IMG/VR virus record: IMGVR_UViG_3300049794_000047
Length of the DNA stretch: 64,000 bases
Reading direction: 5' to 3' (one strand)
DNA from: a virus
Lineage: Duplodnaviria; Caudoviricetes
Each line of letters opens with the position of its first letter. Position 1 is the first letter of the stretch. Shown in pieces: positions 8,735 through 55,830 of this stretch. A program made the translations under genes and the position numbers. The notes under the pieces are model-generated. The model was not told where the DNA came from. It did not search any database and worked only from the letters and a program-made list of their open reading frames with translations.

Positions 8735-8846
8735 CATGCTTAGGGGCTGGAACGAAATAACCTGGTCATTTCTGGTGGAGCTTCGTCGGGGAATCGTTCA
8801 AATGACCAAGTTAATAAAGTCCAGCCCCTTATCCGGTTATCACCCA
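8735..8846 (+). mobile_element. Solo terminal repeat of the TnpB element, interrupted by a MITE
   Basis: Removing the MITE and one TTA restores CATGCTTATCCGGTTATCACCCA, matching the ends at 29289, 30429, 34810 and 36086. Confidence 0.75.
8743..8828 (+). mobile_element. 86-bp MITE family A, copy 1
   Basis: GGGGCTGGA...TCCAGCCCC imperfect 29-bp inverted ends; TTA duplicated. Confidence 0.9.
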
Positions 8847-13056: not shown

Positions 13057-13872
13057 GTGAACCAGCGCTGGTACAGACGGCTGGGCACGTGGCGCGACGA
13101 AAGCGAGGTGATCGACACCCGTGCCTACGAGGTCGCCGAGATCACAAACGACGCGACACCCAAGGCGTTCGTCGAGGAGCACCATTACAGCGGCTCCTAC
13201 CCCGCAGCGCGCAAACGCTTCGGCCTCTACCACGGCAGGCCGCTCGTGGGCGTCGCGGTGTTCTCGCACCCTCCCAACGAGGCGGTACTCCGACGCCTCC
13301 CATGTGATCGTATGGCCGGCATTGAGCTTGGGCGTTTCGTGCTCCTGCCTGAAGTGCCCGGCAACGGCGAGTCGTGGTTCCTCGCGCGCTGCTTCGAGCA
13401 CCTGCGTACAAGTGGGATCGAGGCCCTCATCTCCCACTCCGATCCTTTGCCGCGGCGCGACATCACGGGGCACCTCGTGACGCCCGGCCACATTGGAAGG
13501 ATCTATCAGGCGACCAACGCGATCTACGGAGGCCGTACCAGGGCACGTCACCTATGGATCCTGCCCGACGGCACCTGCTTCTCGGAGCGCGCCCTGACGA
13601 AGATCCGGTCCCGCGATCGCGGCTACCGCTACGCGATCGACCAACTCGTGCAACACGGTGCCGGTCCCCCGCGCGCCCACGACCAGGATCTCGGCGCATG
13701 GCTCCGCGAAGCACTCAGCCGTGTCGCACGCCGCCTGAAGCACCGTGGAAATCACAGATACCTGTGGGCACTTAACAAACACCTCCGCAGCGCCGTCACG
13801 GAGCTCGCACTCGTGGACAAGAACGGCGATCCCGTGAAGTACCCCAAGCAACTCGATCAGGAGATCGCGTGA
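13057..13872 (+). CDS. Mom-family adenine modification protein (GNAT-like)
   Basis: HHYSG, FGL, GVAVF, ELGRFVL, NGESWF, SDP, GHIGRIYQATN. Confidence 0.85.
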   Translation: MNQRWYRRLGTWRDESEVIDTRAYEVAEITNDATPKAFVEEHHYSGSYPAARKRFGLYHGRPLVGVAVFSHPPNEAVLRRLPCDRMAGIELGRFVLLPEVPGNGESWFLARCFEHLRTSGIEALISHSDPLPRRDITGHLVTPGHIGRIYQATNAIYGGRTRARHLWILPDGTCFSERALTKIRSRDRGYRYAIDQLVQHGAGPPRAHDQDLGAWLREALSRVARRLKHRGNHRYLWALNKHLRSAVTELALVDKNGDPVKYPKQLDQEIA

Positions 13873-13907: not shown

Positions 13908-13994
13908 GGAGCTGGACTTTATTAACTTGGTCATTTCGGAGCCTTCGTCGTCGAGAAGCGCCGCCAAATGTCCGCGTTATTTCGTTCCAGCCCC
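13908..13994 (-). mobile_element. MITE family A, copy 2 (most diverged, 87 bp)
   Basis: Reverse orientation; TAA duplicated. Confidence 0.85.
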
Positions 13995-26496: not shown

Positions 26497-26582
26497 GGGG
26501 CTGGAACGAAATAACCTGGTCGTTTCATGCAGTTTCTCGTCGAGGAATCGTCGAAACGACCAAGTTATTAAAGTCCAGCCCC
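26497..26582 (+). mobile_element. MITE family A, copy 3
   Basis: TTA duplicated; CGTTT/AAACG variant. Confidence 0.9.
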
Positions 26583-29241: not shown

Positions 29242-29288
29242 CGCACACCGGACCCGCTGACGCGGCGCCGCGATTCCGTACAATGAAG

Positions 29289-30429
29289 CATGCTTATCCG
29301 GTTAGCTCCCAATAACCCGTGATTCTCTCATTCAAATATCGCCTGAAGGGCCAGCGCTGCATCCGTCAACTTCGACGGGGCGCCTGTATGGTGAACCGCG
29401 TCTGGAACTACAGCGTGCAGACGCAGCATTCGGTTCAGCGGACCTGCCGGGATGGACTTTCCCCTCGGTGGCCCTCCAAGTACGATCTTCAAAAACTCAC
29501 GGGTGGCACCTCCCAAGATCTAGGTCTTCATGCCCAAACGATCCAAGGGGTGTGCGAGCAGTTCACGAAGTCGCGCGACCTTCACAAAAAGTGCCCCCGT
29601 TTCCGTCGCTCTGGAGGGGCCAGGCGCTCCCTCGGTTGGATTCCATTTCAAAAGCAGTCTCGGCAGATCACCGCCAACTCGATCACCTACCTCGGCAACA
29701 CGTACCGCTTCTTCGGCTCGAAGAAGCGCCCCCTCCCTGAGACTGCGAAGGGCGGCTGTTTCGTTGAGGATGCACGCGGCCACTGGTGGGTCTGCTTCCA
29801 TGTCGAGGTGCCGGATGATCTGCCCAGGGCACCAGACACCGCGGTCGGGATCGATTTTGGTCTCACGACGTTGGCAACGCTTTCGACCGGCGAGAAGATC
29901 GAGGCCCCCCGGACGTACCGTCGCTACGAGGAGAAGTTGATCGTCGCGCAGCGCGCGAATAACAGGTTCCGTGTTCGGGCACTGCACGTCAAGATCGCAA
30001 ACATCCGTCGGGACCACATGCACAAGTGGACGACGAAGGTGGCCCGATCCCATCGGACAATCTTCGTCGGTAACGTCTCAAGCTCTCAGCTCGCGAAGAC
30101 AAAGATGGCGAAGTCCGTCTACGACGCGGGCTGGTCGACTTCTCGAAACGCCCTCCGCTACAAAGCCAGCAGGCACGGGGGAACGTTCCGAGAGGTGGAT
30201 GAAGTTTCGACATTCACGACCCAAACCTGCTCGACGACGGGGATTCTCCCGCCGGAGAGGCCGAGAGGTATCGCAGGCCTTGGAATAAGAGAGTGGGGGT
30301 GTTCTGCCTGTGGAGAAATCCACGACCGCGACGTGAATGCGGCCCGGAACATCCTTAAACTCGGGCTGAGTGCTCAGCCTCTTGTGGAAGAAAGCCGGGT
30401 TGCCCATGGGCGTTAACCGGATAAGCACG
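29289..30429 (+). mobile_element. TnpB-only element 1 with ~23-bp TIRs and 8-bp TSD (CAATGAAG)
   Basis: Left end CATGCTTATCCGGTTAGCTCCCA, right end TGGGCGTTAACCGGATAAGCACG; CAATGAAG at 29281 and 30430. Confidence 0.9.
29319..30416 (+). CDS. tnpB: RNA-guided endonuclease TnpB
   Basis: FKYRL, VWN, VGIDFGL (RuvC-I), DAGW, YKA, HDRDVNAARNI (RuvC-III). Confidence 0.95.
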   Translation: MILSFKYRLKGQRCIRQLRRGACMVNRVWNYSVQTQHSVQRTCRDGLSPRWPSKYDLQKLTGGTSQDLGLHAQTIQGVCEQFTKSRDLHKKCPRFRRSGGARRSLGWIPFQKQSRQITANSITYLGNTYRFFGSKKRPLPETAKGGCFVEDARGHWWVCFHVEVPDDLPRAPDTAVGIDFGLTTLATLSTGEKIEAPRTYRRYEEKLIVAQRANNRFRVRALHVKIANIRRDHMHKWTTKVARSHRTIFVGNVSSSQLAKTKMAKSVYDAGWSTSRNALRYKASRHGGTFREVDEVSTFTTQTCSTTGILPPERPRGIAGLGIREWGCSACGEIHDRDVNAARNILKLGLSAQPLVEESRVAHGR

Positions 30430-30431
30430 CA

Positions 30432-30707
30432 ATGAAGATCAGACGCAAGACCGGCCCTTCACAACTGTCCCGCCAGGCCCGGGCGATACTGTCACGCACG
30501 GCCATCGCCCAGGGAGCAATCGACGCCGCCGTCACAGACGTCGTGGTCGAGGGCGGCCCGCCTGAGCTCGGCCCCAAACGGAAGACCGCGCAGCGCGCCT
30601 GGCTCGACCGGGACATTACGAAGCGTGTCCGCAACGGTGGTGTTTCAGCACCGAACCCGAAGGGCCCTATGAAAGGCCTCGTCCCTGCTCCTCGGCTCCC
30701 CACCTGA
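30432..30707 (+). CDS. Hypothetical protein whose start codon lies in the TSD
   Basis: ATG AAG is inside CAATGAAG. Confidence 0.5.
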   Translation: MKIRRKTGPSQLSRQARAILSRTAIAQGAIDAAVTDVVVEGGPPELGPKRKTAQRAWLDRDITKRVRNGGVSAPNPKGPMKGLVPAPRLPT

Positions 30708-30719
30708 AAGGCACCGCCT

Positions 30720-32360
30720 GTGACTGACATCAGCCCCCGAACCGACCTATCGGTCACGTGCGCTCGACTCGGAGATCGGGAACGTGACGCGCTCCTCGCA
30801 ATCAGCGAATGGTGCTGGCGCCGGTTCAAGTTGACCCGGCCCTGCCTCGCCGCGCCTGACGGGCCGAGCCTTAGCATCGCGATCTCGAGCGCGCTCTTCG
30901 CGATGGACGGCTCCGCACCGGCCACCTATCCCGGCGAGTCGCGGGACGGCTTGCTGAGCCTCCTCTCCGAAGATCTGCCCCTCGTGTCGACCGAGCGGGA
31001 CGCCATCCGTGCCCTGATCACGGCAGCCGACACGGCGACTCACGCTCTCCCCGTGGAGCATCGACGGGAATTGTTCTTGCTGGCGCGAACCTCCCGCGAA
31101 GAGGGAACGGGACGTCTCGCTCGCGACATCCGCAACGCGCTAGCGTTCGTCGATGGCGCCTTCCTGGGCACAGTCAGCGAGATCGAGGAGATTTGCGACG
31201 CGCTCGCCCGGCGATCCGCGAGTTCCCTCTCGATCGAGGCGCTGATCACGGCGGTCGATGCTTCCCTGGTCAAACAAACGGCCGCAGCGCCGATCCCCCT
31301 GAAGGTTCCTGATAGCGGACATCCGCGCCCCGCACCCCGTCGAGCCCTACGACTCGCGCTTACACTCGCCCGGGACGCCCTGACCTCGGCAAGTGAGGAG
31401 TTCCGCAGCGCTGTGCAGAGCGCTGTTGCGAATCTGCTCGACGAGCCGGTGGATGCCGACGAGATCGAGGACAAGCCCGGACTTGCCAGGCTCGCCGAGG
31501 TTCGTCAGATCACCCTTGCCCTCGCGGCGCCGAACACGCTGCGGTGCGTCCTCTGTGAGGAAGCTCTATCTCCCGGGGAGTCTATTGACGGCGCATGTCA
31601 CGACGACCTCGCGCACTGCGTGCTCCTCGACCTGTCTCGGCAACTCCAACGCTGGGCAGGGGCCCACCCATTCGACGACGATCAAGATCCGGCGCGGGAC
31701 ACAACCGAGCAACGACTGGTGCGCTCCTACCACAGGTTCGCCGCACTCATCGGTGACGCCGCCGATGCCTGCTTCATGAAGGTATCCTGCGACGTCTGTG
31801 ACACCGTTGGCTACGGCAACGCGCGTTGTTGGTCGTGCGTCGCCCACTGGCGGTGGATGGCACCGGGGCTCCGGCGCAAGAGGACCTCCGAGTTAGTCGC
31901 GCGGACGGCGGGTCGGGCGCTTGGTCCCGAGGACGTTCGGTCCTCCACTGACCGCACGGGGCCAAGGACGCCGGATCGGTCGCTCGGTCCCGAGGACGTT
32001 CAGGCCTCCAGTGACCGCACGGGGCCAAGGACGCCGGATCGGTCGCACGGTCCCGAGAACGTTCTGATCTCCACTGACCGCACGGGGCCAAGGAGTCCAG
32101 GCGCAAAAACATCGAAATTAGCTCCCTTCCTGACGGAGGAGCAGCGCGCGCGGCTGCACTACTACACGCACGCCCTCGGTAAACTTGCCGCCGCTGTCAA
32201 CGCTGGACTCGCTGCGTTTGGGTCCGGACACTCGGGCGCGAAGCGTTTCGAGGTCCTCGCTGGACGGCTCCTCATCCGTTTCCCGGAGCTCGAGTCCGCG
32301 GTCGCGGCACTGTTGCTCGTGGTCGAGGCCGAGCTTACGAAACCTGGAGAGCCCCTGTGA
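30720..32360 (+). CDS. Hypothetical protein with 60-bp tandem repeats
   Basis: 546-aa ORF; GPEDVRSSTDRTGPRTPDRS about 3 times (31918-32093); CxxC pairs. Confidence 0.65.
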   Translation: MTDISPRTDLSVTCARLGDRERDALLAISEWCWRRFKLTRPCLAAPDGPSLSIAISSALFAMDGSAPATYPGESRDGLLSLLSEDLPLVSTERDAIRALITAADTATHALPVEHRRELFLLARTSREEGTGRLARDIRNALAFVDGAFLGTVSEIEEICDALARRSASSLSIEALITAVDASLVKQTAAAPIPLKVPDSGHPRPAPRRALRLALTLARDALTSASEEFRSAVQSAVANLLDEPVDADEIEDKPGLARLAEVRQITLALAAPNTLRCVLCEEALSPGESIDGACHDDLAHCVLLDLSRQLQRWAGAHPFDDDQDPARDTTEQRLVRSYHRFAALIGDAADACFMKVSCDVCDTVGYGNARCWSCVAHWRWMAPGLRRKRTSELVARTAGRALGPEDVRSSTDRTGPRTPDRSLGPEDVQASSDRTGPRTPDRSHGPENVLISTDRTGPRSPGAKTSKLAPFLTEEQRARLHYYTHALGKLAAAVNAGLAAFGSGHSGAKRFEVLAGRLLIRFPELESAVAALLLVVEAELTKPGEPL

Positions 32361-32866
32361 ATCCGACCGCCCATCGTCGCGCGAAGAGGAAGATCGGATC
32401 CCCTAGGTTCCTTCACGAAGAGAAGGCTCCCGTCCGTAAGCGTCGTTTCTCTGCGGTAATCTACGTCGAGATTGAGATCGACGAGAGTCTCCTGACGGAC
32501 GTCCTCACCGACGAGTGGCAGAAGAACTTCTATCGTTTGATCACGGCCGCTGACGTTGCCGGTCACCTCGCTTATAACTTGATCCAAGATCGAAGACTCT
32601 CGAGCCTCGACGGCTTCGCCGATCAACCCGAGGGAGCCGCACGCATCCTCAACGTCAATGCCGAGGACACCCAGGAACTGCCACCACACCCCGAGGGCTC
32701 GAGGGCGTCGATGCTTCCCCTAGTCCGCGAGAGGCACAACGGCCGCGAGTACAACTGGCGGTGCATTTGTGGCGCGTGCGGCGTGACATGGCAATCGACC
32801 CCAAAAAGCGCCGAGAGGGACTATCAGCGACACCTGGGCGCCGAGACGAAAAACCCGCAGCCATGA
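32357..32866 (+). CDS. Hypothetical protein
   Basis: GTGA/ATGA overlaps on both sides. Confidence 0.6.
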   Translation: MNPTAHRRAKRKIGSPRFLHEEKAPVRKRRFSAVIYVEIEIDESLLTDVLTDEWQKNFYRLITAADVAGHLAYNLIQDRRLSSLDGFADQPEGAARILNVNAEDTQELPPHPEGSRASMLPLVRERHNGREYNWRCICGACGVTWQSTPKSAERDYQRHLGAETKNPQP

Positions 32867-33435
32867 CACGATCCATCAAACATTCTCACCCCCTCGCGAA
32901 TCTTGCCAACGCCGTCGAGGAACACGTCGCGGGCACCTGGCCCGAGCTCGCCCGCGCCGCGCCGACGGACGTATGGTTCACCGGCTCCCACGTCTGGCAC
33001 CTTCTCTACCCGAGCCTTCCCCAGCGAGATCTCCCAGAGATCCGCGACTGGGACATCTTCACGATCGGGGAGGGTCCTGCTCAGTGGATCGTCAAGACCC
33101 TTGAGTGGAACCGTACGCCCTCTTGCCGGACCAGCGACAAGTGGGGAGCCGCGCCCAGGATCATCGACGTCCTCCACGTTCCCACGGTCCCTACACTACA
33201 GACGATCAGGCCCAATGGAAACGTGAGCGGATACGGCGACGGCTACAGCTACCAGACCGATCGCGGAATCGTCGACCTCTGGATCACGGCTCTTGACAGT
33301 CCGCTGGCCGAGCTCAAAGCGTATCCAACAATCTCCCACGCGCATTGCCGTGCAGCGTGGAGCTTCGCCGACGGGTTGATCGTGCTGCCAAACGAGTGTG
33401 CGCGCCTGCGGCCATCAGGAGATCTCAAGTCATGA
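32863..33435 (+). CDS. Pol-beta-superfamily nucleotidyltransferase-like protein
   Basis: WFTGS...RDWDIF and later IVDLW. Confidence 0.55.
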   Translation: MTRSIKHSHPLANLANAVEEHVAGTWPELARAAPTDVWFTGSHVWHLLYPSLPQRDLPEIRDWDIFTIGEGPAQWIVKTLEWNRTPSCRTSDKWGAAPRIIDVLHVPTVPTLQTIRPNGNVSGYGDGYSYQTDRGIVDLWITALDSPLAELKAYPTISHAHCRAAWSFADGLIVLPNECARLRPSGDLKS

Positions 33436-34070
33436 GCCGCGATCCCGTCGAGCGCTTGGCATTTTCGGCTGCCAGACAACTGCGAGCCGCGCTGGAGCAT
33501 CCCGCCACGGCGAACGAGCACGCCAGCGGCTATGGCACCGTCTGCCTGACGGGACACCCGGTCTTCGAGCGTCTATGGCTGCAATGCGTGGACGGACAAC
33601 TGGAGCGCGCTCTCGTCGAGGCAGTGCGTGACATCGAGAACATGGTCCCGATCAAAGGCGAGGCTCTGTTCTACGCCCCGCAACTGACCGTTCCACGACT
33701 GCCCATGGTGCTCCACGTCGGCAAGGCTGCGACGATCGACGTGATGACCCCAATGTGGGTGCTTGACGAGTTGCGCTGGCTCGCGCAACGGGATGCGGGT
33801 GATGCACCACGATCCCTGCTGGACATGGTGTTGTCACGACTCAACCATGGGAACATAACCGTGGTCGTCCATTTCATCGATCTCGTCCACATCATCAAGC
33901 GCGTAATCGGAACCGCCCCTGAAGCAAAGCCCGTGCTGGAACCGCGTCCCACAAGAATCCCGCGGAAGAAACCGAGATGAACCGTGCCACGATCATCAAG
34001 ACGGGGGCAGACATTGCGGCAAGGCGTTCGAGCAGCACGTGATCCAGGTTGACGTACAAGGACAGCCCAA

Positions 34071-34529
34071 ATGACCGCAAAGCGAAAGACGCCCACGAAG
34101 CACACCCCAGAATGGACGAAAACCGTCAACCCAAAGGCCTTCGCGTCTCTTGATGCAGGACCGGCTCATGTAGAATCGATGATCCATGTTTACTGGTCGG
34201 GTTATGGGGATGCCCGTGATGCTCGCGATGGCGGCATGGGCCATCGGATGATGCGCGACAAGGTCACGGCCAGTCTCGGACTTGACCATGCCGTCGAACC
34301 CGGATTCACCGAAGACGAGATGCAGGCGATTACCTTCGCGGCCAAGCTGGCAGCATTGAAATGCCTTGGCGCCAGACGGCATGATCACCGACCGCGGTGT
34401 ACGCAAGACCTAGCACGGATCATCGGCTGCACGTGCGGTTGGCAAAGACCCTCTGGAACCGCTGACTCGGACAACGCCTTCTCCACGCACGTCGCGCACG
34501 CGCGTCGCGCGAAAGGCGCTCCACGGTAA
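34071..34529 (+). CDS. Hypothetical protein
   Basis: ORF track; its TAA stop is the MITE target site. Confidence 0.55.
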   Translation: MTAKRKTPTKHTPEWTKTVNPKAFASLDAGPAHVESMIHVYWSGYGDARDARDGGMGHRMMRDKVTASLGLDHAVEPGFTEDEMQAITFAAKLAALKCLGARRHDHRPRCTQDLARIIGCTCGWQRPSGTADSDNAFSTHVAHARRAKGAPR

Positions 34530-34615
34530 GGGGCTGGAACGAAATAACCTGGTCGTTTCATGCAGTTTCTCGTCGAGGGATCGTTGAAACGACCAAGTTA
34601 ATAAAGTGCAGCCCC
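34530..34615 (+). mobile_element. MITE family A, copy 4
   Basis: TAA duplicated; identical to the reverse complement of copy 5. Confidence 0.9.
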
Positions 34616-34825
34616 TAAGCTCAAGCGCGTACAGTTATTCTGTGGGCCCCCCGCCCGAAGGAAAGCCTGTCATGAACGCGTGCACAACTCTTATCACCGA
34701 CTGGTGCAGACACGAGGGCGAAGATCTGCCCAATGTTCCCCCAGGCCGCGCGTCCGAACAACTCCTGACGGTCCAAACCCGCCTGCGGAACGAGGGTGCT
34801 ACATTCACCCGTGCTTATCCGGTTA

Positions 34826-34911
34826 GGGGCTGCACTTTATTAACTTGGTCGTTTCAACGATCCCTCGACGAGAAACTGCATGAAACGACCAGGTTATTTC
34901 GTTCCAGCCCC
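34826..34911 (-). mobile_element. MITE family A, copy 5, nested in the left TIR of TnpB element 2
   Basis: TTA duplicated at 34823 and 34912. Confidence 0.9.
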
Positions 34912-34945
34912 TTAACACCCAAGCACCCAAAGCGGGCCCCCTAGA

Positions 34946-36073
34946 ATGATCCTCACCTACAAATATCGGCTGAAGGGCAAGCGAAGCAGCCGGCTGCTGC
35001 TCCGCAGGGCCTGGGCTGTGAACCAGGTGTGGAACTACTGCGTCGCAACGCAGCGATCGGTCCAGCGGGTCTGGAATGCGGGGTTGTCTCCGAAGTGGGC
35101 CTCACAGTATGACCTGCAGAGGCGCACGGGAGGGACGTCACGAGACCTTCACCTCCACGCGCAGACGATCCAGGGCGTCTGCGAGCAGTTCGTAAAGAGC
35201 CGGGATCTTCACAAGAAGTGCCCACGTTTCCGGAGATCAGGAGGACCGAAGCGCTCCCTCGGCTGGGTCCCCTTCCAGAAGCAGTCCCGACAGGTCACCC
35301 CGAGCTCCGTCACGTACCTCGGGCACATCCACCGTTTCTTCGGGGCCCGCAGGCGACCCCTCCCCGAAACGGCGCGGGGAGGCTGCTTCGTTGAAGACGC
35401 GCGGGGGCGCTGGTGGGCCTGCTTCCATGTTGAGGTGGCAGATGAACTGCGCCAAGCACCAGCATCAGGGAGCCCGGTACCAGGTAGCCTGGCATCAGGG
35501 AGCCCGGTCGGAATCGATCTTGGACTCAAGTTCTTGGCGACGCTCTCGACAGGGGAGAAGATCGATGCTCCCCGGACGTATCGGCTCTGGGAGGAGAAGC
35601 TGATCGTCGCGCAGCGGGCGCACAAGGCAGATCGGGTCCGTGCACTGCACGACAAGATCACGAACGTCCGCCGGGACCACCTCCACAAGCTCTCGACGCG
35701 GATCGTGCGCACCTACGGGGCAGTCTACGTCGGGGACGTCTCTAGTTCTCAGCTCGGTCGCACGCGGATGGCAAAATCTGTGTACGACGCGGGCTGGTCG
35801 ATCTTCCGGGGAATGCTCCGCTACAAGGCCAGCAGGCACGGAGTGAAGTACGCGGAGGTCGATGAATTTCGGAGTACCCAGATCTGCTCGTCGTGTGGAG
35901 ATCTACCACCGACGAGGCCGAGAGGTATCGCAGATCTTGGAATGAGGGAATGGGTGTGTTCCAGCTGCGGTGCGTCGCACGATCGGGACGTCAACGCGGC
36001 GCGGAACATCCTCACGACCGGGCTGAGTGCTCAGCCTCTTGTAGAAGGAAGCCGGGTTGCCCATGGGCGTTAA
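34946..36073 (+). CDS. tnpB: RNA-guided endonuclease TnpB
   Basis: YKYRL, VGIDLGL, CSSC...CSSC Zn finger, HDRDVNAARNI. Confidence 0.95.
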   Translation: MILTYKYRLKGKRSSRLLLRRAWAVNQVWNYCVATQRSVQRVWNAGLSPKWASQYDLQRRTGGTSRDLHLHAQTIQGVCEQFVKSRDLHKKCPRFRRSGGPKRSLGWVPFQKQSRQVTPSSVTYLGHIHRFFGARRRPLPETARGGCFVEDARGRWWACFHVEVADELRQAPASGSPVPGSLASGSPVGIDLGLKFLATLSTGEKIDAPRTYRLWEEKLIVAQRAHKADRVRALHDKITNVRRDHLHKLSTRIVRTYGAVYVGDVSSSQLGRTRMAKSVYDAGWSIFRGMLRYKASRHGVKYAEVDEFRSTQICSSCGDLPPTRPRGIADLGMREWVCSSCGASHDRDVNAARNILTTGLSAQPLVEGSRVAHGR

Positions 36074-36132
36074 CCGGATAAGCACGCATTCACCAAACCG
36101 CGAGCCGCCCTACTCGTCTACAAGGAAGTTTG

Positions 36133-36750
36133 ATGCCCCGCCACCAACAAGTCACCACCTGCCGTCTGAGTGGTGGATCCGTCTCGAAGCACTGCACGTG
36201 CGAGCACTGCACCCTATCCATATGCTCACTATGCGGTGCCTACGAGGGAGGCCTCACGACCGACTGTCCCGACACCGAAATCAGCTTCGACCGGCAACGA
36301 GAGGTCTACGAGACCCCTCTCGACTACACCGACGACCGTGGCTGGCACCAGGGTGAACCGATGAAGCCCAAGTCGCCACGCTTCACGACCACGCGGAGGC
36401 CCCCCGAGCCGCCACGGGTCGATCCTCGCACGATCGTCGCGCCCACGGTCGACTGGACCAGGATCGATCGTAGCGCGGCACTTCAACACGATCTTGCGCT
36501 CCGGGCGATCGCCTGGACCCTCGCCGATCGCACGTGCGACGACCTATCAGCGGCGCTCACCCGCGCCAAGGACGAAGCCGACGCCCACACGGAACCGGAC
36601 GAACCAGGGCGCATCCTGCTCGCCAGGCTCGAAGGCGCACGCGTCAACTTTCAGCTCGCGTGCCGTCGCGTTGAAGAGCGCGACGAAGAGTTCCGGCAAG
36701 CCGCTCGCAAGCTCGTAGACACACTGGAGGCTCCGCCCATCGACCCATGA
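36133..36750 (+). CDS. Hypothetical protein with Cys-rich N-terminus
   Basis: CTCEHC...CSLCGAYEGGLTTDCP. Confidence 0.6.
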   Translation: MPRHQQVTTCRLSGGSVSKHCTCEHCTLSICSLCGAYEGGLTTDCPDTEISFDRQREVYETPLDYTDDRGWHQGEPMKPKSPRFTTTRRPPEPPRVDPRTIVAPTVDWTRIDRSAALQHDLALRAIAWTLADRTCDDLSAALTRAKDEADAHTEPDEPGRILLARLEGARVNFQLACRRVEERDEEFRQAARKLVDTLEAPPIDP

Positions 36751-37744: not shown

Positions 37745-38194
37745 ATGAAAACACCACACCCGTTGAGTTGCTCTGACCTGAATCTGAACCAGGATAAGCT
37801 TGATGACGCCTTCACCGATGCCCTGGACCAGCTCACCGGCCTCCTCATGCATTCCTTCGGACGGGTGCAGGTCCGCCTTGCCCTCCGCGATGGGCTCGAG
37901 GACGAACTGAGAGCGACGCTCCACGTCTTCGCACAAGAGATCGGCAGAGTCATCGAGAGTGCTTACGTGACCAAAGCCCTCGCGAACGCCCGCACCTCGT
38001 CCGCGAACATGTTTGAAGCGCTCGCCGCTGGAGCTCGGGTCGCACACAAAGCTGCCTGCGCGGGTGAATCCGCAGGTGAAGTTGTCCACGCCTTGGCGCT
38101 GATCGCAGCTTGTGAAGGACGGCCAGAGATGCTGACCCTCGAAAACGCGGAGCGTGGCCCCACGGATTTTCCGGCAGTCCGCAACGCGCCATAA
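37745..38194 (+). CDS. Hypothetical protein
   Basis: ATGA overlap; helical. Confidence 0.5.
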   Translation: MKTPHPLSCSDLNLNQDKLDDAFTDALDQLTGLLMHSFGRVQVRLALRDGLEDELRATLHVFAQEIGRVIESAYVTKALANARTSSANMFEALAAGARVAHKAACAGESAGEVVHALALIAACEGRPEMLTLENAERGPTDFPAVRNAP

Positions 38195-38222
38195 GCCATC
38201 AGCCGTACAAAGGAGTTGCCAT

Positions 38223-39092
38223 TTGGGTTACGCACACATCGAGAATCTCTACAAAAGCCGGGCGATCCTCCTGTTTCGCCGCTGTTGGGCCCTGGAGAAA
38301 GTGCATGGTACCAGCGCGCACGTTACCTACGCCAAGGGGCAGCCGCTATCCTTCTTCTCGGGCGGTGAGAGTCACGGCCGTTTCTGCACGCTGTTCGATG
38401 AAACCGCCTTGACGGCTTGCTTCGCCACACTAGGTCACCGTGAAGTTACGATCTACGGCGAAGCGTACGGGGGCCGGTGCATGGGCATGCGAGCAACCTA
38501 CGGCGACGCGCTGCGATTTATCGCGTTCGACGTTCAGGTCGGCGACGCGTGGCTCTCGATCCCTGATGCCGCCCAGGTCGTCCTGGCCCTGGATCTGGAG
38601 TTCGTTCCGTTCGTGGAGGTTTCGACCGATCTTGCGGAGCTAGACCGGGCGCGTGACGCCCCCAGTGTCGTTGCCCAGCGCCGCGGTTGCGGCGACGACA
38701 AGGCTCGCGAGGGCGTCGTGCTCCGGCCTCTCGTCGAAGTGACGCTCAACAACGGCCATCGTGTTGTCGCCAAGCACAAACGCGAAGCATTCTCCGAGCG
38801 CGCAACCCCGCAAAAGGTTGTCGATGTAGCAAAACTGGCCGTCCTGGCCGAGGCGCAGGCGATCGCGCAAGAGTGGGTCACGCCGATGCGGCTCACCCAC
38901 GTGCTGGACAAGATGGCCCGCCCGCTCGACATGAGTGCAACCTCGCAGGTGATCGCCGCCATGATCCACGATGTCTATCGCGAGGCCACGGACGAAATCG
39001 TTGAAAGCCGAGACGCCACGACGGCAATCGGCCGGCGCACCGCCGGATTGTTCCGGGAGTGGCTCCAGACGCAGATCGACACCCCACAGTAA
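38223..39092 (+). CDS. RNA ligase, Rnl2-like
   Basis: Motif I EKVHGTS, III IYGEAYG, IIIa FIAFDV, IV REGVVLRP, V AKHK; TTG start after AGGAG. Confidence 0.85.
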   Translation: MGYAHIENLYKSRAILLFRRCWALEKVHGTSAHVTYAKGQPLSFFSGGESHGRFCTLFDETALTACFATLGHREVTIYGEAYGGRCMGMRATYGDALRFIAFDVQVGDAWLSIPDAAQVVLALDLEFVPFVEVSTDLAELDRARDAPSVVAQRRGCGDDKAREGVVLRPLVEVTLNNGHRVVAKHKREAFSERATPQKVVDVAKLAVLAEAQAIAQEWVTPMRLTHVLDKMARPLDMSATSQVIAAMIHDVYREATDEIVESRDATTAIGRRTAGLFREWLQTQIDTPQ

Positions 39093-39103
39093 AGCTAGAA
39101 ACC

Positions 39104-40258
39104 ATGAAAAATCTTGTCCAAGCCCTGATGCAGGATCGTCCGACCGATTGGCTCACGATCCTCGAGCGTGACTTCAAGATCCACGTCGTTCGTGATGGCG
39201 CGCTCGCGAGCCTCAAGTACAACCAGATCGAATCGCCGATGCGCGAGCCGATCGTGCAGCAGTGCCGTGGCATGGTGGTCGACGTCGAGCGTCGCGTCGT
39301 CTTCGCGTGGCCGTATGATAAGTTCTGGAACTATGGCGAAACGGAGGCTGCGACAATCGACTGGTCGACAGCGCGCGTGCAGGAGAAAATGGATGGCTCG
39401 CTCCTAATTTGGTACTGGCGCGAGGGCGAGCGACCGCCGTGGTGGCGGCCCTTGTCCAGATGGCATTGGCACAGGAAGCGGGGATGGTGCGTCGCGAGCA
39501 GTGGCCACCCGACGGCGGGCGGATCGTTCGGCGCTGACAAGCGTACCTTCGGACAGGCCTTCTGGGATCTCGCTCGAACCAGCGCGTTACGGCATCAGGC
39601 GGCCGACATGAAAGTCACCTACTTGTTCGAGTTGTGCGACGCTCCCAATCGCGTGGTCGTACGCCACGAGCAGCCACGCCTCGTGCTTCATGGTGCGCGC
39701 TGGCTGGAGACTGGGGTCGAGCTGACGCGCGAAGAACTCCTCGAGCACGCCGCTCGCATGGACTGCGAGATCGTGCGCGAGTTCCCGATCCGCACAATCG
39801 AGGACTGCCTCACAGCCGCAAGGGAGCTTGACCCGTTGCAGCAGGAGGGGTTCGTGGTCGTCGACGCCCAGTGCAACCGTATCAAGATCAAGTCACCGCG
39901 GTACGTGATTTTGCACCACATGAAGGGGGAAGCGACGCCACGACGCGCGATCGAGTTATGGCAGACCGGAGAGACTGGCGAGTTGCTCACGCACTTCCCA
40001 GAGATGGCACCAGCGATCGTCCCGATCCAGGAACAACTGGACAGCATTGCTGAGCAAGCGGTCAAGGACTTCGCCGCGAACTACCCACGGCCAACGCGCA
40101 AGGAATTCGCCCTGGCGATCAAAGATCGGCCCTGGTCGGCGGTGCTGTTTCGTCTGCTAGACTGCGATCCTCCGACCGTCGCCGACGCAAAGGCGATCAT
40201 GCGGCGCATGACCACTGCGGCGCTGGAGCGCTTGATCGAGCTCTCACCGAAGACCTGA
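39104..40258 (+). CDS. RNA ligase, T4 Rnl1-like
   Basis: QCRG, PYDKFWNYGE, EKMDGSL, YLFEL, EGFVV, RIKIKS. Confidence 0.9.
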   Translation: MKNLVQALMQDRPTDWLTILERDFKIHVVRDGALASLKYNQIESPMREPIVQQCRGMVVDVERRVVFAWPYDKFWNYGETEAATIDWSTARVQEKMDGSLLIWYWREGERPPWWRPLSRWHWHRKRGWCVASSGHPTAGGSFGADKRTFGQAFWDLARTSALRHQAADMKVTYLFELCDAPNRVVVRHEQPRLVLHGARWLETGVELTREELLEHAARMDCEIVREFPIRTIEDCLTAARELDPLQQEGFVVVDAQCNRIKIKSPRYVILHHMKGEATPRRAIELWQTGETGELLTHFPEMAPAIVPIQEQLDSIAEQAVKDFAANYPRPTRKEFALAIKDRPWSAVLFRLLDCDPPTVADAKAIMRRMTTAALERLIELSPKT

Positions 40259-51426: not shown

Positions 51427-51512
51427 GGGGCTGGACTTTATTAACTTGGTCATTTGACTGATTTTCGGACGAAGATCCACCCGAAATGACCAGGTTATTT
51501 CGTTCCAGCCCC
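51427..51512 (-). mobile_element. MITE family A, copy 6
   Basis: TAA duplicated; identical to copy 7. Confidence 0.9.
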
Positions 51513-51894
51513 TAAGTAAGACACAAGCATCGGCCTTGACGCGCGCCTCTCCCCCGTAGGCCCCAAAGGAACCTCCGAGATGAGTGAACAACCGCAAACC
51601 AACACAGCTGCCGACGACCTGAAACTCATCCGGCTCAACAGCCGCGGGACCCATGAGCCCGACAATCTCCACGCCGCCGACTACCCCTACAAGCTTGTCG
51701 TGCATCTCAGCCCTCCAGAATTTATGCAGGTCGCCTTCATCCTGCTGCACGGCGGAAGTGAAGAACTGATCGTGCGTGGCAAGACCCGCGATGCCCTCGA
51801 CCGCTTCATCACGAAGAACGCCCTCACACAACACCCCGCGCCTGCGCAGTATGACGATCACAGCTCCCAACGGGGCTGCAGAAGAGATCCGCCG

Positions 51895-53415
51895 GTGATT
51901 GACAACAGTGGACCGTGGCCGCGGCTGACTCCAACAGCGATCGACCTAGCCAGTCCCTTCGCCTCGTTCATGGGGCAAGATGAACTTTCTATCGAGCTCT
52001 CGGACGACCTGGCCATCCCCCACGCGACCCAGCTGACGGTCGACCCGCCAACCTCGCTTGTGCGCCGCGACAGCCTCCAAGAGTTGCTCCCCGGTACGAT
52101 CGTGGGCGAGAACTACGAGGTCGGAGAGAGACTCGGCGCTGGAGCAATGGGAGAGGTTTACGCAGCGCTCCACATAGGGCTCGGCAAGCACGTCGCAATC
52201 AAGGTGATCGCCCAGCGCCTCTCGAAGGATGTCCGCTCAATCGGACGCTTCGTCACGGAGGCCCGAACACTCGCGCAGATCCAGCATCCCGCCATCGTCA
52301 CGGTGGAGCACTTCGGGAAATTGCCAGACGGTCGCGTCTACTTCGTGATGGAACACCTGCGCGGAGAAGCACTGTCCGAGCGGCTAGCACGTGGACGCAT
52401 CCCCCTTTGCGAAGCACTGCACATCCTCGACCAGATGGCACGCGGACTCGAGGCCGCACACGGCAGCGGCGTCATCCACCGTGATCTCAAACCCGACAAT
52501 ACGTTCCTGGTCCAGCTTGCCGGGGAAAGACCCGCCGTCAAGCTTCTCGACTTCGGGCTCGCCAAACTTGCCACCAAGCGCGCGGAGAACAGCAGCGTGC
52601 CTCGGGCACCACTGTACACCAAGCGCGCGGAGAACGGCGCCGAGCCCCGCGCACCATTGCCCTCGGAGAGCGGTACCGCGATCAGCACATCGCTGTACAC
52701 CGAGCACACCGAACACTCCGAGCACACCGAGCACTCGGAGAACAGCGTCGCGATCGACACATCGCTGTACACCGAGCACTCGGAGAGCGGTGTCACGATC
52801 GGCACACCGCTATACATGTCCCCCGAGCAGGCGCATGGCTTCAACGTCGATCACCGCACTGACATCTACGCGCTCGGCTGTGTCGCCTACGAGTTGGTAC
52901 TCGGCGTCCGGCCCTTCCCGCAGGCACAGACGGCGCCCGAGATTTATGCGGCGCACCTCCATGAATCCCCTCCCGTGCCGCGATCGATCTGGCCAGAGAT
53001 CCCGCCACATCTTGACCGCTTACTGTTCGCGATGCTCGCCAAAGATCGGGCACACCGGCCAACGCTTGCGCAGGTCCGATCCGTCGTCACGGGCCTCCGC
53101 ACATCCACATTCCAGCAAACCGCGACGGCACCCCTCAAGCCACACGCGCTGAAGAAGAGGCCGAGGGTGGCGGCAGTTTTTGCGTTCATGCTCGGTGCTC
53201 TGGTCACCGGAACCACACTCGGCGCCGCCATCGGTACCACGATCAACGCCAAGAGCAAGGACACCCAGCCCAGGCTCCTCACCCCAATCCAGTCCCCTCC
53301 ACCCGTGTTCCCAGCACCTTCACCCACTCCAAGCGAGTACGCCAAGCAGCCGCAACCCCAAAACACGAGCAGCGCCAAATCCTTGCCGGCCCGTGCTTGC
53401 ACGCACTGTGAATAG
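51895..53415 (+). CDS. Hanks-type Ser/Thr protein kinase with C-terminal hydrophobic helix
   Basis: LGAGAMGEVY, VAIK, HRDLKPDN, DFG, GTPLYMSPEQ, DIYALG; probable GTG start at 51895. Confidence 0.92.
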   Translation: MIDNSGPWPRLTPTAIDLASPFASFMGQDELSIELSDDLAIPHATQLTVDPPTSLVRRDSLQELLPGTIVGENYEVGERLGAGAMGEVYAALHIGLGKHVAIKVIAQRLSKDVRSIGRFVTEARTLAQIQHPAIVTVEHFGKLPDGRVYFVMEHLRGEALSERLARGRIPLCEALHILDQMARGLEAAHGSGVIHRDLKPDNTFLVQLAGERPAVKLLDFGLAKLATKRAENSSVPRAPLYTKRAENGAEPRAPLPSESGTAISTSLYTEHTEHSEHTEHSENSVAIDTSLYTEHSESGVTIGTPLYMSPEQAHGFNVDHRTDIYALGCVAYELVLGVRPFPQAQTAPEIYAAHLHESPPVPRSIWPEIPPHLDRLLFAMLAKDRAHRPTLAQVRSVVTGLRTSTFQQTATAPLKPHALKKRPRVAAVFAFMLGALVTGTTLGAAIGTTINAKSKDTQPRLLTPIQSPPPVFPAPSPTPSEYAKQPQPQNTSSAKSLPARACTHCE

Positions 53416-55444: not shown

Positions 55445-55830
55445 ATGACTAAGGGGCTGGACTTTATTAACTTGGTCATTTGACTGATTTTCGGACGAAG
55501 ATCCACCCGAAATGACCAGGTTATTTCGTTCCAGCCCCTAAGTATCGTCACCTCTACAACGAAAACGCGCGCCTCCACAGGGCGCTTGTCGAGGCAAACA
55601 CCGAAATCGAGGCGCTGAAGTCTGATCGTGGTTATCAGGTACTACTGGACAACTCGCCTGACGAGCACGACGCGACTAACGGGGGCGCCGTAGACTTCGA
55701 GTCGTCGTGGTGGCCGGGGCTCATCGCGAGGTTGAACCATCTGCACAAGAGCTTGGTCGCTAAGCCCAAGGAATTACGGATGGGCTCCATCCGGAGGGCA
55801 TCCTCAACGCATACCGTGAGGGCGACTTGA
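55445..55830 (+). pseudogene. Small gene disrupted near its start by MITE copy 7
   Basis: Removing the MITE gives MTKYRHLYNENARLHRALVEANTEIEALK... Confidence 0.6.
55453..55538 (-). mobile_element. MITE family A, copy 7
   Basis: TAA duplicated at 55450 and 55539. Confidence 0.9.

Follow-up and report, generated by a model that had tools for sequence, protein, structure and literature searches.

The stretch of phage DNA analysed here, 64,000 nucleotides of IMG/VR record IMGVR_UViG_3300049794_000047 (referred to as the window), carries two copies of tnpB, each of which is the sole gene of an element of 1.1–1.3 kb: element 1 at 29289-30429 and element 2 at 34810-36086. Both open reading frames (ORFs) match the Pfam models OrfB_IS605 (PF01385) and Cas12f1-like_TNB (PF07282), and the two proteins are 69% identical, in agreement with an initial annotation that had described two diverged, single-gene tnpB elements at these positions. 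The elements are bounded by inverted repeats of about 23 bp. In element 1 the left end reads CATGCTTATCCGGTTAGCTCCCA and the right end, reverse-complemented, CGTGCTTATCCGGTTAACGCCCA, and 20 of the 23 positions are shared by the two ends; six matches to the 15-nt repeat core occur in the window at three or fewer mismatches, compared with 0.48 expected. Abutting the repeats are exact 8-mers, present on both sides of each element but differing between the elements, CAATGAAG for element 1 and CATTCACC for element 2. The annotation had reported these inverted ends and the two different 8-bp duplications, and all of its positions and sequences for them are correct. The stop codon of tnpB falls within the right repeat and, in element 1, tnpB starts 7 nt past the left repeat.

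The left end of element 2 requires a qualification. The repeat is present as annotated, but in the window it is not uninterrupted, being split after 16 nt by an 86-bp hairpin miniature inverted-repeat transposable element (MITE). Without the MITE this end reads CGTGCTTATCCGGTTAACACCCA, and the same sequence is found in L152, a 99.4% identical phage variant from a Joint Genome Institute (JGI) metagenome in which element 2 is present, the MITE is absent and the left repeat is intact. Since L152 lacks that copy, we consider the insertion of the MITE into element 2 to be very recent. An inverted copy of this MITE, 100% identical to it, lies 210 bp upstream.

Searching IMG/VR with the repeat gave 15 matches for one repeat variant and more than 120 listed matches for the other. 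Insertions were called by pairing inverted copies of the repeat and demanding identical 8-mers on both sides. Among the matches listed there are at least 64 non-redundant insertions in viral contigs, 207-2253 bp in length, that have the same ends and exact 8-bp duplications, the duplication being present in 66 of 82 non-redundant nearest-neighbour end pairs. The consensus of the repeat is CATGCTTATCCGGTTRaCaCMCA, and the target preference is weakly palindromic (RTN|NWWNNWWN|NAY). Members of 1.6-2.3 kb encode a protein of ~345 aa with Zn_ribbon_IS1595 and DDE_Tnp_IS1595 domains (at least nine elements; E ~1e-31 to 1e-35), and two such transposases score 185-190 bits against NCBIfam NF033547, for which the cut-off is 75. 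Between the tnpB elements and nine transposase-bearing elements, the first 15 nt of the ends are identical or 1 nt apart. Other members with the same ends are MITEs, or carry N6/N4 methylase genes, phosphoadenosine phosphosulphate (PAPS)-reductase-like genes or unknown ORFs. The IS1595 family, a group of prokaryotic relatives of eukaryotic Merlin, is defined by an 8-bp duplication, a zinc finger and DDE_Tnp_IS1595 (Siguier et al. 2009, to the extent summarised in PMC8101967).

Because relatives with the same ends and 8-bp duplications encode an IS1595 transposase, we assign the window elements to the IS1595 family as non-autonomous members with tnpB as passenger, and the same comparison of ends assigns the presumed mobilising enzyme to that family. 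The central proposal of the annotation, a non-autonomous DDE-type transposon with inverted ends and target-site duplications that carries tnpB, is thereby upheld; the database search for the repeat, suggested there as a way to an autonomous partner, yields in IMG/VR autonomous relatives that have the same ends and encode an IS1595 transposase. The lineage is abundant in uncultivated, mostly large phage genomes. It resembles IS1595 in its 8-bp duplications, its short inverted ends and, in relatives with the same ends, its transposase of zinc ribbon plus DDE_Tnp_IS1595, but differs in occurring mainly in viral contigs and in its many MITEs and single-gene non-autonomous derivatives. Some IS1595 subgroups carry passenger genes. 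The ends of the ISSod11 subgroup, which we take to have the form nnnGcnTATC, would accommodate CATGCTTATC.

Removal of element 2 and one 8-mer recovers an ORF of 58 codons whose stop overlaps the next start (TGATG), as the annotation had proposed. L153, a related syntenic phage contig that is ~80% identical, aligns without a break over the element 2 junction, and has at that site a single, slightly diverged 8-mer and the same TGATG. L153 is an empty allele for element 2, and it keeps one 8-mer, not both. L153 is also without element 1; there the 5.4-kb module 29243-34650 is replaced, hence no base-exact empty site is available for element 1. That module, which comprises element 1 and about six ORFan genes, corresponds in L153 (3494-3975) to ~480 bp with an unrelated 84-aa gene, and element 1 lies 47 bp within the left boundary of the module. 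An exact-match search of JGI metagenome contigs found neither an empty site for element 2 nor the right flank of element 1, and no empty sites were present among the loci fetched by the repeat. Table 1 lists the features of both elements and of one further IS1595-type end in the window.

Table 1. Positions in the window of the two tnpB elements, their component parts and associated features.
Feature	Position	Strand	Remarks
Left 8-bp target-site duplication, element 1, CAATGAAG	29281-29288		Identical to 30430-30437
Left IS1595-type terminal inverted repeat, element 1	29289-29311	+	Fits family consensus
tnpB, element 1, 365 aa, GTG start	29319-30416	+	Sublineage with N after RuvC-II glycine and CSTT zinc-finger variant
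Right inverted repeat, element 1	30407-30429	-	Holds tnpB stop codon; predicted 3' part of omega-RNA scaffold
Right duplication copy, element 1	30430-30437		Includes ATG (30432) of downstream 91-aa ORF
Left 8-bp duplication copy, element 2, CATTCACC	34802-34809		Repeated at 36087-36094
Left inverted repeat, element 2, outer 16 bp	34810-34825	+	Inner 7 bp at 34915-34921
86-bp hairpin MITE within element 2 left repeat	34826-34911		TTA duplicated at 34823-34825 and 34912-34914
tnpB, element 2, 375 aa	34946-36073	+	D191 (RuvC-I), G263, alternative E307, D348 (RuvC-III), intact CxxC...CxxC
Predicted omega-RNA scaffold, 3' region, element 2	35997-36086	+	Compensatory changes in 8/13 pairs
Right inverted repeat, element 2	36064-36086	-	From sequence comparison of ends
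Right duplication copy, element 2	36087-36094		Start of presumed guide-template flank
Small ORF, 5' part, interrupted by element 2	34672-34809	+	Resumes at 36095-36133 after element removal
Orphan IS1595-type end	8735-8742 + 8832-8846 (8735-8846)	+	Split by 86-bp MITE copy at 8743-8828

The MITE that interrupts element 2 is one of seven copies of the 86-bp hairpin in the window (8743-8828, 13908-13994, 26497-26582, 34530-34615, 34826-34911, 51427-51512 and 55453-55538). These copies have TTA/TAA duplications; two of them are 100% identical, and two lie within IS1595 repeats. No partner end was found for the orphan IS1595-type end at 8735-8846.

The element 2 protein scores 200 bits against the NCBIfam TnpB model NF040570 (cut-off 100), and its closest natural relative of solved structure is ISDra2 TnpB (PDB 8EXA, 8H1J), with an E value of 2e-23 over residues 189-365. 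Alignment to ISDra2 TnpB places a glycine at the position of the canonical RuvC-II glutamate. This glycine is found in 120/120 of the closest clusters, where the residue that follows it is Asp or Asn, and the same 120 clusters are invariant for both catalytic aspartates and for a glutamate that closely precedes the zinc finger (E307 of the element 2 protein). A glutamate-to-glycine rearrangement with a compensating glutamate has been described for large TnpB branches (Altae-Tran et al. 2023, PMC10691335), and the RuvC site of the window proteins, as it appears in the alignment, fits this published type. The CSTT zinc-finger variant of element 1 is common to 36 of the closest 120 clusters; we therefore regard it as a trait of a sublineage rather than a sign of decay. 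Taken together, the conserved residues suggest that these proteins are RuvC-II-rearranged RNA-guided nucleases and probably active. With ISDra2 TnpB, a member of IS200/IS605, they share the RuvC and zinc-finger core and an omega-RNA, putative in the window elements, that overlaps the 3' end of the gene, but ISDra2 has neither inverted repeats nor a duplication and is moved by Y1 TnpA, and its canonical E278 aligns with the glycine seen here. Compact proteins of 365-375 aa with a rearranged active site may be of interest to those who screen TnpBs.

We next consider the RNA that such a nuclease would use. A common predicted fold is shared by the last 90 nt of 21 right ends. A first stem of 6 bp (GGGCTGAG/CTCAGCC) has no broken pair in the 21 sequences and shows compensatory changes in four of its six pairs, and it covaries despite its position in coding sequence. 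A second, short stem uses the inner repeat and covaries at one pair in 12 sequences, and a further helix is formed between the CCGG of the repeat and a conserved AAGCCGG. Judged by eye, the inner repeat is also the 3' arm of a variable hairpin. No Rfam family matched this 3' RNA. The covarying structure, which includes the right end, looks like an omega-RNA, and the repeat would then be part of that putative omega-RNA; the same has been predicted for Fanzors in transposons with terminal inverted repeats and target-site duplications (PMC10711439). At position -2 a T is present in all five tnpB insertions that have duplications, compared with 61% in the family.

The association of tnpB with these ends extends well beyond the window. 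There are more than 120 TnpB clusters at 59% identity or above, many of them located on 190-430-kb contigs; the contig to which the window belongs is 262 kb long. Elements with tnpB, both ends and duplications of their own are found elsewhere in L070 (ATATCAGA), L147-149 (GTTCCCCG) and L151 (GGAAGATC). In 81 of the closest 120 TnpB clusters the C-terminus is the peptide encoded by the inner right repeat. The right end lies 3' of tnpB in 22 of 28 viral loci at 50% identity or above, versus 2 of 53 below 50%. In the 28 loci, the left end is kept in only 11, and loci with the right end alone outnumber those with the left end alone by 12 to 1 (p=0.003). This preferential survival of the right end is consistent with it having a second function. 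The closest TnpB homologues in the genome collection are from metagenome-assembled genomes of Steroidobacteraceae, are 47% identical and are without these ends; the repeat is rare in that phylum, with a match in 4 of 401 sampled genomes. Our conclusion from these comparisons is that the tnpB-IS1595 association defines a TnpB clade, above ~50% identity, and is not a recent capture.

Among the sampled Pseudomonadota (L159-L163, from genomes G262 and G200), one assembly has an incomplete IS1595 transposase that shares 77% identity with the L090 enzyme and adjoins the repeat at the start of a contig. Another assembly has two MITE-like repeat pairs.

The explanation that we hold, with considerable confidence, is that the elements are non-autonomous members of an IS1595 lineage whose whole cargo is tnpB and its omega-RNA, that they are moved in trans, and that they are likely to home. 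The transposase of an autonomous relative, with its N-terminal zinc ribbon and DDE domain, would act in trans on the ~23-bp ends, and would insert the element into a weakly palindromic target cut with a stagger of 8 bp, giving rise to the two differing duplications. The omega-RNA scaffold would span the 3' end of tnpB, with the right repeat as its last helix, and its guide would be copied from the duplication and right flank. When a second phage genome that lacks the element enters the same cell, TnpB would cut its empty allele, upon which recombination would copy the element in. By analogy with IS605 TnpB and phage homing endonucleases, such cutting of unoccupied alleles is the most likely role of TnpB.

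A further-reaching proposal, which we put forward only tentatively and think somewhat unlikely in its entirety, is that throughout this TnpB clade the omega-RNA scaffold and the right repeat of an IS1595 (Merlin-related) transposon have become fused. The product would be a selfish cassette of large phages with two modes of spread, DDE insertion in trans and then RNA-guided homing, which would maintain and spread it and could continue once the left end and the transposase had been lost. With a rearranged RuvC site like that of Fanzors, such a cassette would be the nearest counterpart among prokaryotes and viruses to the Fanzor arrangement in transposons with inverted repeats and target-site duplications, with a partner family not yet described. 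The clade-wide fusion of repeat and guide-RNA scaffold is, in our opinion, the most interesting lead from this work.

Several observations weigh against the interpretation of the elements as trans-mobilised IS1595 members that home. No IS1595 transposase was found in the 64-kb window, nor within 4 kb of the ~90 tnpB loci examined, and a DDE fragment is present in only one of five tnpB-bearing viral records. No target-adjacent motif of the usual 4-5 nt is evident, since the 8-bp duplication varies and only a weak target preference is seen. In its present state, element 2 has a left end split by the MITE. Furthermore, the duplication is absent from 6 of 11 tnpB-bearing end pairs, versus 16 of 82 pairs across the whole family (Fisher p=0.019); tnpB pairs with two good ends but no duplication are those of L139, L140/141, L142, L170, L177 and the L152 allele. 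Of the observations that the annotation said would refute it, most turned out in its favour: the homologous copies of L070, L147-149 and L151, which are independent of one another, have 8-bp duplications, and the empty allele has a single 8-mer. The missing duplications could reflect adjacent rearrangement mediated by the transposase, recombination between copies, or misassembly across a 1.1-kb repeat. An inversion between two copies in one contig was also considered as their cause, and does not fit the flanks when these are compared by eye.

Neither a near match to the window nor a close relative of the transposase was present in a cultured-phage collection. The final base of the right end of element 2 is exactly where the similarity between L152 (5732-7044) and the window stops, with the window diverging from 36087 onward; downstream of element 2, L152 has no 8-bp duplication and unrelated genes, which may be due to a rearrangement at the transposon end or to a misassembly induced by the repeat.

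The observations that weigh against the main interpretation can be read differently. The elements may be mostly relics, once inserted by an IS1595 transposase, that now persist and spread without a transposase as cassettes for homing or recombination, or that serve the phage as a domesticated nuclease, with the right repeat kept only as a part of the omega-RNA. The retention of the right end twice as often as the left (22 vs 11 of 28, and 12 right-only loci vs one left-only) is what would be expected of such relics, as are the absence of a transposase from four of five tnpB-bearing viral records, one of them rated complete, the duplication missing from 6 of 11 tnpB-bearing pairs, and the break made by the MITE in the left end of element 2. 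We nevertheless consider this explanation improbable, given that perfect duplications and two good ends are present in both window copies and in three other lineages, and that the left end of element 2 is intact in L152.

An origin by nesting, in which an IS605- or IS607-type tnpB unit inserted itself into an IS1595 MITE such that the inverted ends are incidental, would draw on the fact that MITEs with these ends are common and that nesting does occur here, as the 86-bp MITE inside a repeat demonstrates. The geometry of the elements makes this very unlikely: with the tnpB of element 1 only 7 nt from the left repeat, and its stop codon inside the right repeat, there is no room for IS605 or IS607 ends, and the overlap of tnpB and repeat is kept in 81/120 clusters. 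Nor is there a Y1 or serine recombinase gene near those tnpB loci whose gene calls carry Pfam annotation, and the window TnpB falls below the NCBIfam cut-offs for the TnpBs of both groups (149 bits against 425 for NF038281, IS200/IS605; 108 against 350 for NF038280, IS607). A further alternative is that each element is a classical IS200/IS605 or IS607 element whose apparent repeats and duplications arose by chance or mimic them through a hairpin. In its favour, TATCCGGTTA, the core of the repeat, comes close to being a palindrome, but the outer CRTGC is truly inverted, the two copies have two different exact 8-mers, IS1595 transposase genes are bounded by the same ends, and an empty site exists. 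We therefore give this alternative almost no credence. Membership of IS200/IS605 or IS607 is ruled out by the inverted repeats and duplications together with the sub-cut-off scores.

The arrangement that we describe is of a known kind. The annotation had placed tnpB with inverted ends and duplications beyond the known prokaryotic arrangements, a claim that is out of date: prokaryotic TnpBs within DDE transposons that have inverted ends were published in 2023, solo copies mobilised in trans among them. Altae-Tran et al. 2023 (PMC10691335) distinguishes six DDE-transposase-associated TnpB branches, DDE-1 to DDE-6, all with inverted terminal repeats. The 3' end of tnpB lies near the transposon end in these branches and rearranged catalytic sites are common; solo tnpB copies have the same ends as relatives that carry a transposase, and the authors take them to move in trans. 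A 2026 review gives the partners as ISL2, IS630 and IS1031 (PMC13565253). The window elements are like these branches in having TnpB inside an inverted-repeat transposon with its 3' end near the transposon end, in occurring as solo copies and in their rearranged sites. They differ in that the partners named for the branches in the texts consulted are IS630, ISL2 and IS1031, not IS1595; this sets them apart by named partners only, and they may coincide with one of the branches. In addition, every copy seen here is solo, and the habitat is large uncultivated phages.

A full-text literature search for IS1595 and TnpB, which did not extend to the supplementary files of the 2023 paper, found no paper describing a link between the two or tnpB as an IS1595 passenger, and a study of huge phages from soil only notes TnpB-like relatives of Cas12. 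The annotation had asked whether the ends match an already described tnpB-bearing insertion sequence family: the ends are those of a known family, IS1595, but tnpB as its passenger was not found reported. Our results thus add a partner family and a habitat to an arrangement of known kind, the general principle of which was published in 2023. The transposase family can now be named, and the association of tnpB with IS1595 is of long standing and shared by the clade, not the outcome of a single capture event.

The comparison with Fanzors is one of arrangement, not of phylogeny. Fanzor1/Fanzor2* (Bao and Jurka 2013, PMC3627910; Yoon et al. 2023, PMC10711439) likewise have a relocated RuvC-II glutamate, and can likewise be the sole gene of a non-autonomous element with inverted repeats and target-site duplications, sometimes in viral genomes. 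In contrast to Fanzors, the window proteins are TnpB-sized (365-375 aa) and prokaryote-like, and their transposon is of the IS1595 type, with a duplication that is long (8 bp) and variable where that of Fanzors is short and fixed. For the biology of RNA-guided nucleases the elements are a clear case of an omega-RNA that must accommodate both a repeat bound by the transposase and an 8-bp duplication that varies, and the same problem is faced by Fanzors in eukaryotic transposons.

In phage genomes, one set of IS1595 ends is found with interchangeable single-gene cargo: tnpB, methylases, PAPS-reductase-like genes, an HNH nuclease, or nothing. Single-gene cargo between IS1595 ends, with or without a transposase, was seen in L077, L040, L108, L020, L105, L125 and L091, the cargo types across these loci being N6/N4 DNA methylase, C5-methylase-like, PAPS-reductase-like and unknown ORFs. 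The transposase is accompanied by a second gene in L040, L091, L105 and L125, and the PAPS-reductase-like cargo is that of L020 and L108. In L025 (400-2382), an HNH endonuclease and a helix-turn-helix replace the DDE core of an IS1595 transposase gene that retains its C-terminus and its zinc-ribbon N-terminus, the latter 97% identical to that of L127.

Elsewhere in the window, tandem copies with a 63-nt period occur at 31903-32094 within a 546-aa ORF (30720-32360), and give offset self-matches in comparison with L152; the gene call for this ORF in the homologous part of L152 is 485 aa long. The window further encodes a Mom-like DNA modification protein (13057-13872), a pair of neighbouring RNA ligases at 38154-40258, one Rnl2-like (Pfam RNA_ligase) and the other Rnl1-like (RNA_lig_T4_1), and a Ser/Thr kinase (51580-53415), a gene content that fits a large phage.

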